Positions 31,169-56,478 of a DNA stretch of 64,000 bases are shown one piece after another. The position numbers and the translations under genes were made by a program. Positions within the stretch are counted from its first letter, which is position 1. Each line of letters starts with the position of its first letter. The notes beneath the pieces were generated by a model. It made no database searches. It worked only from the letters and a program-made list of their open reading frames with translations, and was not told the origin of the DNA. This DNA is from a virus (Duplodnaviria; Caudoviricetes): the IMG/VR virus record IMGVR_UViG_3300020190_000004; one strand, given 5' to 3'.

Positions 31169-32122
31169 TTAGCTATTCATTATTATTTGACATTCATAAA
31201 CTGCGGCAACCATAGAGATCGCGGGATCAATCACAGTTACTCTTTGTGATTGGTAGTGTGCTGCCTTAATTACAACTTGCGGTATCTTACCTGCAAGATT
31301 AGGCTGATTTTCCTTAATGTATTCTGGGAGTTCTCCGCCAAGGGAAGCAAGAACCTCATCAACTTTAGCACCGTAATTTGTCATCATAAACTTGTAAGTT
31401 TCAGATGGGTCGGGTTTAGGAGCACATACAAGTTCAAATATATCTCGGAAAGAGTAGTTAAGTTGCTTAATATCTTCAACCCGGATTTCTTTTACGCCTT
31501 GTATGATAAAGTTTTGCGTCTTGTTTAAGATAGATCGCATGTCAGGAAAGTTTCTCTTAACGAACTCAATGACAGCGTCTTTCTCGATAGCAATTCCTGC
31601 TTGTTTAAGAATTGACCAGGTTCTCTTAATAAACTCAACCATAACTTCTTTCTCTTCTTCTTTGTTAAGAAAGTCAAAAGATACACATGTGAACCGTGAT
31701 TGTACTGGGTCCGGCACTTTGTTAATGTAGTTACAAGTACCAATGAAACGAGCGGTTGCTGCGAACTTTTCTATAGTAGCACGAAGAGCTTTATAGAATT
31801 GGTCAGAAGCACCGTCCATCTCATCAAGAATGACTACCTTGTATTTCTCCGCGCCGTCAAGTAAACTAATAGTTGAACACCAGTTAGTAATCTTTTCACG
31901 TATAACATCAACAGAACTTTCATCAGAAACGTTTATGTATAGGTAAGGATAGTTACTTGCTAGTACTTTGGCAAGAGATGTCTTGCCTAAACCCGGAGAA
32001 CCGTAAAACAAGTAGTTTTGCTGTAGTTCACCGTTACCTATGCTTTTGCGGATCCTTTCAGGAAGGATCATTTGCTCCAACGTTTTGGGGCGGAATTTTT
32101 CTGTGAATAGTTCTTGGATCAT
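31169..32122 (-). CDS. gp44: Clamp loader large subunit (T4 gp44/RFC-like AAA+ ATPase)
   Basis: EKFRPK, GSPGLGKT, ILDEMDG, sensor SRF, FPDMRS. Confidence 0.95.
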   Translation of the reverse strand: MIQELFTEKFRPKTLEQMILPERIRKSIGNGELQQNYLFYGSPGLGKTSLAKVLASNYPYLYINVSDESSVDVIREKITNWCSTISLLDGAEKYKVVILDEMDGASDQFYKALRATIEKFAATARFIGTCNYINKVPDPVQSRFTCVSFDFLNKEEEKEVMVEFIKRTWSILKQAGIAIEKDAVIEFVKRNFPDMRSILNKTQNFIIQGVKEIRVEDIKQLNYSFRDIFELVCAPKPDPSETYKFMMTNYGAKVDEVLASLGGELPEYIKENQPNLAGKIPQVVIKAAHYQSQRVTVIDPAISMVAAVYECQIIMNS

Positions 32123-32878: not shown

Positions 32879-33463
32879 TTACTTAAAGGGTGTACCTCCA
32901 ACCCAAAATACCAAAGACTTTCTTACCCCAGCTGATACCTTTTCTACCATGTGAGGTATATAAGTCGGGTAAGCGATGAAAGAACCTAACGCTCTTGGAA
33001 CTGTGTGTATACCGCCAGCCATGAAATAGAGATTACCTCCGCGATAGTCATCACTTGAACTCAACTGAACTGATACGGCAATCTTTCTTCCGCTAAACGG
33101 CGGAGGTGACGCCATGTCAACGTGCCAATCGTAATGATCACCTTCATGGTACTCACAGTACATAATGTGCTCAACCATATCAATAGGATCAAACTGCCAC
33201 ATCTTATCATTGGAGACTTTAATTAAATCATAAAGTCTTCCGTACAACCATGCTGACTCGTCGTTGTAATCTATCCAACCGCCTCGACAAGAACGAACTT
33301 CTGGGTTATACTCACCGTCAACGGTAGCATCAATAAGTTCGATTTTGTTAGTAATCTCTAGTATGCGATTAATCTCTTCTTCTGAAAGAGCAGACTCAAT
33401 CACACCTGGTGAAACCAGTGAAACTTCTTTTTCTTCGTGAAGAGCTTGACCTATTGCTATCAT
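32879..33463 (-). CDS. 2OG-Fe(II) oxygenase (PKHD-type)
   Basis: HxD motif DWHVD, RKIAVSVQLS, YRGGNL, HMVEKVSAGVRKSLVFW. Confidence 0.9.
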   Translation of the reverse strand: MIAIGQALHEEKEVSLVSPGVIESALSEEEINRILEITNKIELIDATVDGEYNPEVRSCRGGWIDYNDESAWLYGRLYDLIKVSNDKMWQFDPIDMVEHIMYCEYHEGDHYDWHVDMASPPPFSGRKIAVSVQLSSSDDYRGGNLYFMAGGIHTVPRALGSFIAYPTYIPHMVEKVSAGVRKSLVFWVGGTPFK

Positions 33464-37311: not shown

Positions 37312-37656
37312 TTATAGACTATAGAGATTTTCGTTGCTTAAAGATACCTGGTCCGTTGAACTAAGAGGGTGAAGTTTTCTCCAGCCTTTAGCAAAGCCGT
37401 TCTTTATGATTTGTGTATAGTAAGCAAACGGATACTTTGACTTTTCAGGGTTGTAACTTCTCCAGTATTTCACAACATCCATTAGTGCAAAAGCAATACA
37501 ATCTTTACGATCTTCTTCATCTTTATATCTTAGCTTTTTAGAAGCACCTTCTGCCATAAGCATAAGCATTTCAATAGCTCTTGGTGTCAATTCATTTTTT
37601 TCTTTAGATAGAAGAATTTCTTTTCTAAACTCTTCAGGGTTTACATAATTTGCCAT
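37312..37656 (-). CDS. gp55: Late-transcription sigma factor (T4 gp55-like), short form
   Basis: YVNPEEF...DRKDCIAFAL....YWRSYNPEKSKYPFAYYTQIIKNGF. Confidence 0.8.
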   Translation of the reverse strand: MANYVNPEEFRKEILLSKEKNELTPRAIEMLMLMAEGASKKLRYKDEEDRKDCIAFALMDVVKYWRSYNPEKSKYPFAYYTQIIKNGFAKGWRKLHPLSSTDQVSLSNENLYSL

Positions 37657-37664
37657 AAATTTAA

Positions 37665-38294
37665 TTAGTTTGGGGTTCCGGAGGCTGATACTTCAGTTTC
37701 AACGTCAAGACTCTTTAAGTAAGCCGTTAGTTCAGAAACACAGATATCTAAAGAATCAAAGGAAAGTTCCGAGTTTTCCTCAACAGTTTTCTTTAGTTCA
37801 GCTATATCTGAAATGATGCCTTTAACCGAGTCAGACAATCCTGAAACAAATCCTGTTAGTTGGTCGGGTTTATTTTCACCAGTTTTAGGATTTGTTTGGG
37901 TATCGGTCTCAGAATTATATACACCATACTCAATTAGTTTTGGGATCTCAATGTATTTCTTAAGTACCTTGAATTTCTTTGACCCTCCCAGCATGATAGC
38001 AACCTCATCTTGGTCACCGCCGCTGGTGAATTCAACAGCTTTAACAAGGACTTCTTCCCCAGCGCCAGCGCCAGGGAAGTCCTTGGAAAGTTTTCCTTTT
38101 ACATATTCATCGGATTCTTTAAGGCCCACGGTGGCACCGTCGCCTTGAGTCGTTAATTCCAGATCATTGCCCGGTTGAGATTCAGATTTTCTCTTAACAA
38201 CCTTTATATCAGTAGGGATGACTATTTTAGTTGTTCCGTCTTCAAGCTCAATAGTTAAAGTTTTGTCGGCTTGATTAGCCCCTGTGACTATTGC
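37665..38294 (-). CDS. -1 frame continuation of the 38288..39871 gene (the track's GTG-start ORF 37665..38129 is its distal part)
   Basis: The frame is open from the A9 run (38295-38303) to 37665, with no ATG/GTG/TTG before 38129. Confidence 0.6.
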   Translation of the reverse strand, partial: AIVTGANQADKTLTIELEDGTTKIVIPTDIKVVKRKSESQPGNDLELTTQGDGATVGLKESDEYVKGKLSKDFPGAGAGEEVLVKAVEFTSGGDQDEVAIMLGGSKKFKVLKKYIEIPKLIEYGVYNSETDTQTNPKTGENKPDQLTGFVSGLSDSVKGIISDIAELKKTVEENSELSFDSLDICVSELTAYLKSLDVETEVSASGTPN

Positions 38295-39871
38295 TTTTTT
38301 TTTAAGTACTCGACTTCATCACCAACACCAGCACCTAATCCTTCAGTTACATGAGTAAGCTCAGAAACTTGTTTCTGAATTTTGTAATACTCATCTTTAA
38401 GATTGGAAATCTCTTCATCGATAGCAGAAACCAATTCTTTTATCTCATCGCTTTCACGAATTTCAGTATCAGCTATATTTTCGATTTGTTGCTTTCTTTC
38501 TTCAAGATGTTTGATAGCTGAAAGGTATTCTCCTTTCTCTTCATTTAGTTTGTTAATCTTTGCTTCTTCGTTAACGATAAAAGTATCAAAAGTTAAACCT
38601 AAATCAAAATTAGCAAATTCCAACACTAAGTTACGTGATTGAACCGCGTTACAGTCATTATAGAATTTGCTTTCTTTCATAGCAACATCTACTGTATTGA
38701 TGTATGTCTTATCGCCAAGAACAAAGATATCAGCTCGACGATTAGGATTGCTCTTAGGATAAACCGACTTAACAAAGTCAAGTTCAAAGATTGCGTCCCA
38801 GTTCTCAACGATTTTACCCACCGCTGTAATAACTTCCTTTTCATCAAAGCGGAAGATTCCAGAATTAAGGTATACCGCATGGAATTCATTGATAGTTACT
38901 TTTTTATTATTGATGTAGATTCCTAATCCTTCAGATTCTTCAACAAGTTCTACCTTTTTGTCTTTTGAAAAGATTTTCATGCGATTCTCAGAAACTTCAA
39001 CATTTGGTTGGCTCATGAATGCTGATAAGAAAGTAAAATAGTCAGGTAACTTTTTGTATTCTTCTTCAACAAGAGGGCGCATTTTTTCACCGCTCTTAAC
39101 ATAAGCTTTACCGTTCACAGCAAAGATTTCATCAGATTCGGTAACGATTACCGGAGAATAAACTTTTCCGATGTGAGCGTTATTTATGTTTCCTTTTAAT
39201 TGGAAAGATCTTTCAGATTCAACAACCACATTGTATAAAGATTTGATTGTTGGATCGTAAGCATGTTTGCTTAAACTTTCGATTAACTTAGAACGATTAG
39301 TAGAAGTTCTGCTGTTTAAGTAAGTATCGATGTCTTTTTCTAAACTTGACATGATAAAGTTAGATCTGCTATTCTTTGCTTCGTGAACAGCTTTGTAAAT
39401 CTTAATATCTTCTGCGTATTTCTCGCAGTTAGCTGTAAGAGTATTTAAGCTTTCTTTAATAGCCGGTTCAAAAGAATACGGTGAAAGAACGGAGATTAAA
39501 TTCTCAGCAACCAACCACTCAGGCTGATTTGCCATGCTGCCTAATTTCTCAAGCATGTATAATAAACTTGGGTGTTTAGACAAGTCAGAAGAAGCTGCTG
39601 CCTCTAATACTTTCTTAACTCCTAAGTTATTCATTCCATGAATTCTCTTCTCAATCTCGACGAATTCTCTTACTTCTGATTCTTGTATGTTCTCCAATGC
39701 AGAGATTAGAGATTCTGCTATAGCGTTCTCTGCTTTCGCCGCATCAGCAGGTGAAAGGTTAAGGTAAGAATACTCAGCATGTTTCTTAAGTGCTTCATTA
39801 CAAGCAGCGATAGCATCGGTTGATCCAGATTTAGATATGAATCCCTCAATTCTTGTTTTGATTTTTAACAT
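38288..39871 (-). CDS. Large helical/coiled-coil late protein (possible head internal/scaffold-type protein); extendable by -1 slippage
   Basis: 527 aa, GATATATA upstream, ends at TTA AAA AAA AAG CAA TAG. Confidence 0.75.
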   Translation of the reverse strand: MLKIKTRIEGFISKSGSTDAIAACNEALKKHAEYSYLNLSPADAAKAENAIAESLISALENIQESEVREFVEIEKRIHGMNNLGVKKVLEAAASSDLSKHPSLLYMLEKLGSMANQPEWLVAENLISVLSPYSFEPAIKESLNTLTANCEKYAEDIKIYKAVHEAKNSRSNFIMSSLEKDIDTYLNSRTSTNRSKLIESLSKHAYDPTIKSLYNVVVESERSFQLKGNINNAHIGKVYSPVIVTESDEIFAVNGKAYVKSGEKMRPLVEEEYKKLPDYFTFLSAFMSQPNVEVSENRMKIFSKDKKVELVEESEGLGIYINNKKVTINEFHAVYLNSGIFRFDEKEVITAVGKIVENWDAIFELDFVKSVYPKSNPNRRADIFVLGDKTYINTVDVAMKESKFYNDCNAVQSRNLVLEFANFDLGLTFDTFIVNEEAKINKLNEEKGEYLSAIKHLEERKQQIENIADTEIRESDEIKELVSAIDEEISNLKDEYYKIQKQVSELTHVTEGLGAGVGDEVEYLKKKQ

Positions 39872-39895: not shown

Positions 39896-39903
39896 TATAT
39901 ATC
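39896..39903 (-). promoter_or_regulatory. Putative late promoter GATATATA
   Basis: Exact motif. Confidence 0.6.
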
Positions 39904-39924: not shown

Positions 39925-41466
39925 TCATTGGATTTGAATTTTTCCAATGACAGGTTCTACTTCAATAAGCGTCCCTGTGTGTTGTCCAGTAACTATATTA
40001 TTTATCTCAATGTAATTTTGTCCAAAATCAAAGGAAACTATAACAGAACCGGCGGGTATGCCCAGTCCTGACACAACTTTACCCGTCAAGTCGCCATTTT
40101 GTAAAAGGGTGCCTAATGACGGAAACACATTAGTTATTCTCTTATTAGCAGGCGTTGGTAATGTATTGTCAACATCTCCGGTAAAAGTAACAGTATTTAG
40201 AAGATAGCCAAAAGTCAGTTCGGTATTTGCATCTTCTATCTTAATCTCAATTTCATTAAGAGGTGTTACCCAAAAGTCGGCACCTGAAAAAGTTATAGTT
40301 GCACCGGTAACGCTTCCACTTTGAACTACAGCCTGAATATCTGGCGGCGACGGCGGGTTTACTGGGTTTGGTACCGGTCCAATTACCGACATTTGTATTG
40401 AATCGCCGTTAGTGTATGAAAAGCCTTGGTTTAATATAACAACTGAGTCAACTGAACCAAATACATTTGTAATAGCTCTAATTTTTGCATCCCTGCCGGT
40501 GTCAGAAATAACTGCAAGTTTTTGCGGCTCGCTGTCTATCTCTATTCCGTTGATATCAAAGAATGGAATTTTCCAATCATACGCTCCGTTGTTATTAATG
40601 TTATTGGCAAACTTGACCCATGTAGAAGATCCAAAAAGTCTGTAGTATAGGTTAACTCTTTGTATAGGTCCAGTGTTTGTCCAGGTTATAGGAAGAATTC
40701 CATCTGAAAAGTATTTTTCATTTGCGTTAGGAGTTTCAATTGTAAATCTTGGTGCTACATATCTTTCAGAAGAAGTATCTTGTTGATTAAACCCTGACAC
40801 ACGGTTTGAGTTGCTTCTTTCTGTTGTTGAGTCAAAGACTGGGTAATAAGTTTCAACAGTTATACCAAACTTAACAGTTGTTCTTGCATTTGTCTGGTAA
40901 GTAAATTCAAAAGTTTTGTCTACTGTGTAGTCTTCAGAAAAGCTTGCTTGGCATGGTATTCTTAATCCTCTAAAGTTAACCGAGAATACTTGTACTTTAT
41001 AGAATGTTTCCATGACTGCTTGTTCAATCTTGAAAGCATCTAGGTTGGTGTCTACTTCTACCTCTACATCAAAGTTCATTGTGATAGGCAAAGAGTTTAA
41101 GTAAGCACTAAACGTTTGTAATTGACCGTTTACTTCTTTAACATAATTGCCTCTCACAAAACGGTGAGTCATTTTTGCTGTGTCGATGGTCTTTGCTGTC
41201 ATTGTTGCAATCCCTCTTGGTATTACATCATAGTTTCCGTCAGCGTGACGAGGGTTAATACAATCATTCCACTCTAAAAAGTAGTCTTGTAAGAATCTTT
41301 CATCGCCACCCATGTTATAGAAGAACGGAACGTATACCGTATCTATAGAAGTATCTGATAAGATGTTATCAAAGAAGATTTTGCTGTTAAGCAGGTTAAC
41401 AAACCCTACTATGACAGCTCGTGAATGGACGTTATCGGTGTTGTATTTATGTAAAAATTCTCCCAT
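39925..41466 (-). CDS. Tail terminator/sheath stabiliser (T4 gp15-like) with C-terminal Ig-like extensions
   Basis: VYVPFFY..G.ERFL...PRG...LPITMNFDVEV...DAFKIEQAVMETF; then ITWTNTG...VNLYY...NNNGAYDWKIP. Confidence 0.7.
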   Translation of the reverse strand: MGEFLHKYNTDNVHSRAVIVGFVNLLNSKIFFDNILSDTSIDTVYVPFFYNMGGDERFLQDYFLEWNDCINPRHADGNYDVIPRGIATMTAKTIDTAKMTHRFVRGNYVKEVNGQLQTFSAYLNSLPITMNFDVEVEVDTNLDAFKIEQAVMETFYKVQVFSVNFRGLRIPCQASFSEDYTVDKTFEFTYQTNARTTVKFGITVETYYPVFDSTTERSNSNRVSGFNQQDTSSERYVAPRFTIETPNANEKYFSDGILPITWTNTGPIQRVNLYYRLFGSSTWVKFANNINNNGAYDWKIPFFDINGIEIDSEPQKLAVISDTGRDAKIRAITNVFGSVDSVVILNQGFSYTNGDSIQMSVIGPVPNPVNPPSPPDIQAVVQSGSVTGATITFSGADFWVTPLNEIEIKIEDANTELTFGYLLNTVTFTGDVDNTLPTPANKRITNVFPSLGTLLQNGDLTGKVVSGLGIPAGSVIVSFDFGQNYIEINNIVTGQHTGTLIEVEPVIGKIQIQ

Positions 41467-55925: not shown

Positions 55926-56444
55926 TTATGCTTTTCTGTCATCTAGTCTAAAAGAAGATGTGTACATTCTCTGAGATGGCATATCCAGGTTTGTACCTGC
56001 CATGTCAAAGAACTTGGCAAAATCTGCATTATCTTCTAAAGAGCTGTAGTCAAATCCTAATCGGTCTTTTGGGTCATTTAGATTAGCAAAGATAAAGAAA
56101 GCATTTCCCTTCTCAGAAAAGCCTAATGTGTCAAGGTCGAATTTGCCAGGACAGCAGTCTTCAAGAATCTTTGGAAGAGCGTCAAGTGCTTTTTGTGCAA
56201 AGGCGTATATTTTTGTTTTACGATCGTAGATGGCTTTTGCATTTTCTTGTGCCCAGTCTACTGTATAGTACTTGTCTTTAGCAGCCTCGTTAAGGTCTTC
56301 GCCTTCTTCAAGTGCATCTTCTTTTATAGTGTATTTCTTTCCCTGAAATTCAAACTCTTTTAGACCTTGCTTCTTTGCATTTGCCAAAGCAGCATGAAAT
56401 GCATTCTCGTTTAAGAAATTTTCAAATGATGATATGTGTTTCAT
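55926..56444 (-). CDS. Putative capsid-internal polyprotein (leader MKHISSFENFLNE; internal LEE/LNE sites)
   Basis: CTS-like leader and internal L-x-E motifs. Confidence 0.65.
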   Translation of the reverse strand: MKHISSFENFLNENAFHAALANAKKQGLKEFEFQGKKYTIKEDALEEGEDLNEAAKDKYYTVDWAQENAKAIYDRKTKIYAFAQKALDALPKILEDCCPGKFDLDTLGFSEKGNAFFIFANLNDPKDRLGFDYSSLEDNADFAKFFDMAGTNLDMPSQRMYTSSFRLDDRKA

Positions 56445-56470
56445 AGTCTCTGATTTTTTTTTGACCAGAG

Positions 56471-56478
56471 TATATATC
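56471..56478 (-). promoter_or_regulatory. Putative late promoter GATATATA
   Basis: Exact motif heading the CTS cluster. Confidence 0.6.

Follow-up and report, generated by a model that had tools for sequence, protein, structure and literature searches.

A conserved A9G site in a giant lake phage very probably gives one late gene a short and a C-terminally extended product

The late genes for T7 10A/10B, lambda G/GT and the major head protein of Lactobacillus phage A2 each yield mostly a short form, along with smaller amounts of a long form that has extra C-terminal domains. In all three the additional module is appended by frameshifting (PMC5009743). Thermus thermophilus dnaX relies on programmed transcriptional slippage on a run of nine adenines (PMC5009743), and Escherichia coli dnaX, the source of tau and gamma, combines an A_AAA_AAG heptamer in an A6G run with an upstream Shine-Dalgarno-like (SD-like) element and a downstream hairpin, the shift there truncating the protein (PMC4344849, PMC5009743). 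We describe a further candidate on the minus strand of a 64,000-nucleotide stretch of IMG/VR virus record IMGVR_UViG_3300020190_000004 (the whole stretch is called the window below), from an uncultured giant lake phage related to T4. A gene for a 527-residue protein ends there on an A9G run, and a 209-codon stretch of coding sequence follows in the -1 frame. We consider it very probable that this is a conserved programmed recoding site through which one late gene produces a short and a C-terminally extended isoform.

As in Thermus dnaX, there is a nine-A run on the coding strand, stops lie nearby in the frames of the short product, no RNA stimulator appears to be needed and the two isoforms would share their N-terminus. 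In Thermus, however, the unslipped mRNA gives the long product and the slipped mRNA the short one, whereas here slippage would give the long one, and the protein families are unrelated. The heptamer and its phase are identical to those of E. coli dnaX, but the phage site is A9G, has no conserved stimulator and would add 209 residues. With T7 10A/10B, lambda G/GT and A2 the locus shares a short and a C-terminally extended form from a late gene, an arrangement conserved across relatives; it differs from them in its shift motif and protein family and in that the site falls inside a folded domain, not between domains. The recoding trick itself is well known. What is unusual is the break inside a folded domain, an A9G run without an RNA stimulator, and the natural variants in run length.

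An earlier sequence-only reading of this DNA had given the last codons of the gene as TAC TTA AAA AAA AAG CAA TAG with nine A at 38295-38303, a product of about 735 residues after one extra A, and a -1 frame lacking ATG, GTG or TTG for about 55 codons. Re-reading the minus strand returned the same ending and bore out every sequence statement of that reading. The -1 frame is open from 38315 to a TAA at 37667-37665, its first possible start codon is a GTG at 38129, 55 codons past the run, and a product shifted at the run has 526 + 209 = 735 residues. A9G contains two overlapping in-phase -1 heptamers, A_AAA_AAA and A_AAA_AAG, both in the register that a tandem -1 slip requires. The A9 run is at the same time a homopolymer of the kind on which RNA polymerase slips in programmed transcriptional slippage. 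Its length in itself is unremarkable, with about 2.7 runs of at least nine expected per window against two found; it is the only one of the two inside a gene. The excess over chance lies in the conservation of the run across relatives and not in the run itself.

Under standard decoding the gene would make the 527-residue protein, in whose last 17 residues the first strand of a small beta domain would be left without a partner. If the frame shifted by a net -1 within TTA AAA AAA AAG, the 735-residue isoform would result, completing this SH3-like domain and adding a conserved linker, a second beta domain, a conserved disordered motif and a C-terminal helical hairpin. The slip frequency would therefore set a fixed ratio of short to long form from one gene. 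One A added to the mRNA on the A9 run by RNA polymerase and a ribosomal -1 slip would lead to the same protein. With the site inside a domain, half of that domain would be left as an exposed strand at the end of the short form.

Assemblies made independently from four lake metagenome runs, none of them a candidate source, give contigs that span 38295-38303 without an insertion or deletion, and all have A9. These are assembled contigs, which lose rare variants. We fetched 53 loci from IMG/VR and JGI metagenomes; 48 have the site, and 35 of those are distinct sequences. NNA AAA AAA AAG stands in the same phase in 35/35 distinct relatives (43-91% amino acid identity), the run being A9 or, where the preceding codon is GAA, A10, and the ten columns of A9G are invariant. 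In all 35 the zero frame stops 0-2 codons past AAG, the +1 frame stops at 4-15 codons and the -1 extension is open for 155-218 residues. The sequence-only reading had proposed looking for A9 against A10 in raw reads and for a broken frame in relatives: the independent assemblies have A9, all 35 relatives break at the same spot, and neither a frame-restoring A10 nor a continuous open reading frame (ORF) was seen among them.

Six further sequences fetched afterwards have runs of A8-A10. In-phase runs of 9-10 A ending in AAG, after GAA, GCA, GGA and TCA codons, are present in L028 and three deeper members (L079-L081); in the deeper members it is GCA, GGA or TCA that precedes AAA AAA AAG. A8 runs occur in L057, in L058 and in the A8 allele lineage described below, that of L058 following TCT with A_AAA_AAG kept. 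A_AAA_AAG is in phase in the 35 distinct relatives, L058 and L079-L081, and L057 has A_AAA_AAA. The codon before the run may encode L, E, S, A or G, but it ends in A in every sequence except one.

As a control for codon usage we used a codon alignment of 31 full-length sequences. The three lysine codons of the site are AAA in 31/31, AAA in 31/31 and AAG in 31/31, and the 13 other conserved lysine columns all mix AAA and AAG. The leucine column that precedes the run is, alone among 21 conserved leucine columns, A-ending in 100% of the sequences; the others are A-ending in 10-70%. By this measure selection at the shift site acts at the level of the bases, beyond the protein. The short form is conserved as well. 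Among about 75 homologous protein clusters, the close ones (~40-84% identity) are nearly all 516-531 residues long and end in ...GDEVE(Y/H)LKKK(Q) followed by a stop; since no in-frame fusion was found among the ~75 close clusters, the short form appears to be selected for.

Read in the -1 frame, the extension shows purifying selection. Its pairwise ratio of non-synonymous to synonymous substitution rates (dN/dS) is 0.06-0.25 in that frame and >1 in the other two, and the upstream ORF has 0.06-0.18. At window positions 37970-38142, two strain variants that co-exist in the lake differ by 10 single-nucleotide polymorphisms in the extension, six of them synonymous and four conservative when read in the -1 frame. 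Protein conservation of that frame starts at the first codon past the run. The first possible start codon of the extension lies 32-542 nucleotides downstream in relatives and none is conserved; L002 has no ATG, GTG or TTG anywhere in its extension. L058 has a TAA that ends the -1 frame right where the run begins, at its first base, which would leave ribosomes no way into that frame except within the run. What lies beyond the site is a conserved -1 ORF with coding selection and without its own start. These comparative data strongly support the central proposal of the sequence-only reading, in which a slippery A9/A_AAA_AAG site joins the 527-residue protein to a start-less -1 frame, so that both a short and a long form are made.

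A profile search of 1.84 billion representatives returned 392 related clusters. The nine closest with a match from residue 1-3 (at least 540 bits) are 516-531 residues long and stop at KKK, and the tenth, P0033, has an N-terminal addition of about 240 residues and also stops at KKK. More distant matches to the whole N-terminal body are nearly all 570-1700 residues long and continue in frame. With hhalign, the extension profile matches unbroken P0106 (E 9.6e-6, 116 columns, both small beta domains) and unbroken P0098 (E 3.8e-5, including the PGNDLE..TQ linker motif), and the N-terminal parts of both match the 527-residue body. Judged by these profile matches, body and extension are parts of one protein.

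The homologues in LR756500 and Lak-C1 are unbroken, as are nearly all of the more distant full-body homologues, so the unbroken form is the common state in the wider family. It is probably ancestral, the break having evolved in one freshwater clade. The unbroken homologues (from Lak phages, LR756500 and about 380 further 50%-identity clusters) share with the split protein the N-terminal body, the coiled-coil hairpin and SH3-like or second beta domains; that of LR756500 also shares the neighbourhood, lying within about 5 kb of the portal gene. Unlike the split protein, they are encoded all in one frame, usually with 570-1700 residues and often with long acidic tails, and have no A-run at the equivalent position. 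The clade would document an evolutionary transition from an ancestrally unbroken protein to a two-isoform gene by way of a break within a folded domain.

The AlphaFold2 (AF2) model of the 527-residue form has a mean predicted local distance difference test score (pLDDT) of 83.6, with residues 511-527 below 50. In the model this form looks incomplete, its last 17 residues being an orphan first strand that is disordered. The extension model (mean pLDDT 68) runs in order through three strands, a disordered but highly conserved linker, the second beta domain, a disordered and nearly invariant motif and a helical hairpin. The first strand of beta domain 1, VGDEVEYLKKK, is in frame 0 and the remainder in frame -1; its three strands in the extension model have pLDDT 75-84 in a model without the frame-0 strand. 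The junction domain was assessed by aligning virtual fused products. In that alignment VGDEVEYLKKK/AIVTG...IKVV (the slash marks the junction) aligns with SIGDTVKIKESGDTGKIISI...VDL of unbroken P0076, and the junction in the alignment with unbroken P0075, P0076 and P0078 falls inside one small beta domain. At the equivalent place the unbroken homologues have sub-threshold Pfam matches of SH3 type, to PF20297 (MSSS SH3, E 5e-4 to 2e-2), PF14192 and PF23044; the same Pfam search gave no KOW match. A KOW/SH3-like module had been proposed at this position: the seamless domain is supported by the alignment and its SH3-like nature is suggested by the sub-threshold matches and the partial model, and KOW in particular drew no Pfam match.

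The second beta domain is missing in some lineages (L002, L003, L019). The GVYNSExDxxxNPKTGENxPD motif is retained even in L057, the most distant split member, and may bind a partner. Positions of these features are collected in Table 1. Public gene calls miss the extension or give a truncated ORF of 102-161 residues from an internal ATG. As gene callers split the gene or miss its extension, the 735-residue isoform is unannotated across this clade of large freshwater phages.

Table 1. Features of the two-frame gene, its products, its neighbours and its relatives (window coordinates unless a locus or residues are named).
Feature	Position	Strand	Remarks
Zero-frame ORF, short form, 527 residues	38288..39871	-	ATG at 39871
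Shift site A9G, phased TT[A AAA AAA AAG]	38294..38303	-	A-run 38303-38295, G at 38294
Zero-frame stop TAG, one codon past AAG	38288..38290	-	
-1 frame extension, 209 codons + TAA	37665..38294	-	would be reached by a shift only
Small SH3-like beta domain 1, across the shift site (putative)	38196..38326	-	junction alignment; strands 4-28 of extension model; sub-threshold Pfam
Second small beta domain (predicted)	37962..38105	-	homologous to LR756500 protein C-terminus and P0106 residues 610-668
Near-invariant motif GVYNSExDxxxNPKTGENxPD, predicted disordered	37863..37925	-	invariant columns; pLDDT <50
C-terminal helical hairpin of long form (predicted)	37680..37862	-	helices 148-177 and 183-208 of extension model; generic fold matches only
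Predicted layout of 527-residue form	residues 1-218 helical N-terminal domain; 232-407 beta-rich middle; 429-506 long helical hairpin; 511-527 disordered tail		AF2
gp55-like late sigma factor, 114 residues, next gene	37312..37656	-	phrog_234, E 2.9e-13; same order in relatives
Upstream neighbour, 513 residues, weak similarity to T4 gp15 tail sheath stabiliser	39925..41466	-	PF16724, E 4.4e-4 (under curated cut-off)
Late-promoter-like octamer GATATATA, 24 nucleotides upstream of target ATG	39896..39903	-	11 copies in window
All copies of octamer GATATATA	3439, 7728, 17455, 18866, 19548, 23445, 27988, 35859, 39896, 41472, 56471	-	
Truncated public calls	L057 1661-1960; L058 4249-4683; L079 2946-3254; L080 2145-2630		
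A8 allele loci L059-L065	site ~3682-3693 in L059, L062-L065		proteins P0035, P0079-P0083

Run length varies in nature, as A8 and A9 occur in near-identical sisters. The A8 allele, CTA AAA AAA AGC, belongs to one sub-lineage, the cluster of P0035 and P0081, and has an intact 155-residue extension in the +1 frame. At least six independent samples contain it, and it is shared by two sub-lineages 1.4% apart. Between these, 30 nucleotides differ upstream, 21 of them synonymously and 9 not, and the extension has 8 differences, split evenly between the two kinds. The sister sequence P0080, with 98-99% protein identity to the A8 lineage, ends in KKKQQ and a stop, which is the A9 state. By its frame relation, the A8 extension lies where a simple -1 ribosomal shift would be unable to reach it. 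It could be reached by polymerase slippage (one A fewer or two more) or by a +1 or -2 ribosomal event (PMC4344849). A second A9 run (GGT GAA AAA AAA ACT) is present inside the extension of the A8 lineage, at about 4825-4833 in L043 and L065.

From 35 nucleotides upstream to 90 downstream of the site, RNAalifold predicted 0 conserved pairs with either 24 or 35 sequences. A downstream hairpin had been pointed out in the window; it exists, at -12.5 kcal/mol over 79 nucleotides, but it is neither exceptional (z = -1.08, equalled by 28/200 shuffles) nor conserved. An SD-like stimulator would be expected 10-14 nucleotides upstream; GGTGAT lies 17 nucleotides upstream of the site in the window, and relatives have AACGAT, GGAGAT or GACGAT at that position, so there is no conserved SD-like element. 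SD-type stimulators are not expected in Bacteroidota, the probable hosts.

We give slippage by RNA polymerase roughly an even chance of being the main route of the shift. The run retains at least nine A, three more than the heptamer contains, irrespective of which residue precedes it. Bacterial RNA polymerase is reported to slip efficiently on runs of nine A/T (PMC5009743), and the polymerase of E. coli needs at least eight A to slip (PMC6260861); the family minimum, A8, equals this lower limit. The lack of a conserved RNA structure or SD-like element points the same way, as does the persistence of the A8 allele in nature. The zero- and +1-frame stops given above match the early stops of transcriptional slippage, which is weak evidence because out-of-frame stops are common in AT-rich DNA. 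More specifically, though here we are distinctly tentative, the long isoform may arise mainly by slippage of host RNA polymerase, directed by the phage gp55-type late sigma factor, on a run of threshold length, with A8/A9/A10 variants tuning the isoform ratio of a virion-associated protein. If this is true, no earlier case of programmed transcriptional slippage would have been described for a phage related to T4.

A purely ribosomal -1 frameshift on A_AAA_AAG in the style of dnaX or lambda G/GT, with a faithful A9 mRNA and negligible polymerase slippage, is a serious possibility, though one we rate at less than even. Lambda G/GT, for which no stimulators are known, shifts with a frequency of a few percent, which counts for this route; against it counts the tRNA-Lys(CUU) that Bacteroidota usually have as well and that makes slippage at AAG less frequent. 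The heptamer stands in the phase required, and few heptamers are as efficient in E. coli (PMC4066793). Yet it is accompanied by no conserved downstream structure or upstream SD-like element, the run is longer than the heptamer requires, and the preceding wobble base is A across five amino acids. Given the efficiency of slippage on nine-A runs in bacterial transcription, some A10 mRNA would be hard to avoid, and the A8 allele has its extension in the +1 frame, beyond the reach of a -1 shift. Comparable shares of polymerase and ribosomal slippage take up the small remainder of our expectations.

Several points weigh against our interpretation, and in particular against a polymerase route. The long form and its share of the product are predictions from DNA sequence. 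Each feature that favours the polymerase also has a ribosomal interpretation: A9G holds two overlapping heptamers, so even the ninth A can be explained by the ribosome. The G is invariant, the zero-frame stop is adjacent, and L058, with a run of only A8 after TCT, still keeps A_AAA_AAG. A related phage has two genes for tRNA-Lys(UUU), which is shift-prone at AAG (PMC5009743). The A8 allele could mean that the long form is dispensable, perhaps for a time, and the four synonymous and four non-synonymous differences in its extension are too few to decide. Matches that would suggest a function are also wanting: P0001 and the -1 frame translation have no PHROG match and only sub-threshold Pfam matches, Foldseek against the PDB gave no match with a template modelling score (TM) >0.2, and VIA-align against the PDB returned generic helical hairpins only (Z ~9).

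The polymerase and ribosomal routes are indistinguishable from sequence. With about 40 diverged sequences, no RNA stimulators and natural A8/A9/A10 variants, the site should be useful for separating the two. The related phage just mentioned (a 238-kb contig, in the record with L017; L066-L078) encodes about 13 tRNAs, and those checked all read A-ending codons. Besides its two tRNA-Lys(UUU) it has two tRNA-Leu(UAA), which together are the decoders of TTA AAA AAA AAG.

A switch at the level of DNA, in which replication slippage would maintain A8, A9 and A10 sub-populations and only A10 genomes would make the long form, is improbable. It would account for A8 and A9 alleles among sequences 98-99% identical, but no assembly of any lineage is in frame with its own extension, and contigs across the site show a single state, though contigs lose rare variants. 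A virion also needs its proteins within one infection, which a rare genomic variant would be unable to supply.

We consider it very improbable that the downstream frame is translated by itself, through re-initiation or a non-canonical start, as a second polypeptide that then joins the 527-residue protein. No more than 0-2 codons separate the zero-frame stop from the point where the conserved -1 sequence starts, and such stop-to-start geometry occurs in termination-reinitiation coupling. Near the stop, however, there is no conserved ATG, GTG, TTG or other fixed codon, and L002 is start-less throughout. The -1 protein is conserved from the very first codon past the run, the junction interrupts a single small beta domain which distant homologues have unbroken, and the invariant A9G would be left without a reason.

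Homopolymers are error-prone and one close lineage has A8, but a sequencing or assembly error in an unbroken 735-residue ORF, or a recent inactivating mutation ahead of a decaying pseudogene, is the least credible explanation of all, being contradicted by 35 distinct sequences, obtained in many studies and with many assemblers, that all share the out-of-frame state (A10 variants with the same frame relation among them), by the four independent runs without an insertion or deletion, by the lack of in-frame fusions in close relatives, by the dN/dS of an extension under purifying selection and by a codon-level invariance that an ordinary in-frame KKK would not explain.

The protein is probably late and virion-associated, with a minority of subunits carrying an extra binding module. 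This is suggested by the GATATATA motif upstream of the gene and by neighbours that resemble gp15, gp55, gp4, gp2 and gp20. Conserved sites of the (L/I/V)-x-E type match the preference of the T4 gp21 prohead protease. The VTE-G and LKE-S motifs that the sequence-only reading had picked out as such sites are present and their Glu residues are conserved: [VILM]xE-G at residues 508-511 and [LIV][KR]E at extension residues 58-60 flank beta domain 1, in linkers that are modelled with low confidence. By our estimate about 16 such tripeptides are expected by chance in 735 residues. No protease gene was found within the 64-kb window, and the N-terminus of the 527-residue protein is unlike the capsid-targeting leaders of the same genome. 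The head-protein role that the sequence-only reading put forward, and processing at such sites, are tentative.

Among other searches, BFVD structures matched only uncharacterised phage proteins, and the ESM Atlas gave TM of at most 0.31 by structure and no match by features. A DNA search of 50,697 phage records and a tblastn search with the extension gave no match, and a scan of prokaryote genomes found no relative. Pfam matches of P0001 or the -1 frame to DUF1664 and Chordopox_A13L were sub-threshold and were taken as chance.

The stretch with the site is contained in more than 20 lake-water metagenome runs, and the searches turned up no RNA run that contains it. All genes of the window lie on the minus strand, in the order gp41-like helicase, gp47 (SbcD-like), gp46 (SbcC-like), the 513-residue gp15-similar protein, the target, the 114-residue gp55-like late sigma factor, gp4 (head closure), gp2 and gp20 (portal). 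The sigma factor gene begins 9 nucleotides past the stop codon of the extension. By its portal protein the phage is nearest to LR756500-LR756504, huge uncultured phages of 462-735 kb; Lak phages of Prevotella come next and Tenacibaculum phage PTm1 third, and a Bacteroidota host is therefore likely. In PTm1 the region near the portal gene is annotated with 'hypothetical' and 'neck' proteins only.

In relatives too, a neighbour of the target gene is recorded with the PF16724-type family of the 513-residue protein. The PF16724 match of the latter is weak but recurrent and is confined to the first 200 residues, leaving about 300 C-terminal residues unexplained. The genes directly downstream of the portal are unlike a T4-like head module, the capsid and prohead protease genes falling outside the window; those at 32879-33463 and 31169-32122 (both minus strand) match a 2-oxoglutarate-Fe(II) oxygenase and a clamp loader.

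Against 2.2 copies expected, the window has 11 of the octamer GATATATA, always on the coding strand; none of 100 shuffles reached 11. The copies checked sit just 5' of genes, among them those for the portal, a tail-tube-like protein, the target and its upstream neighbour. The octamer is likely to be the late-promoter core for the gp55-like sigma factor, and its copy ahead of the target suggests that this gene is expressed late. The only other run of at least nine A/T in the window, at 56454-56462, is intergenic and lies between a copy of GATATATA (56471-56478) and an ATG at 56444.

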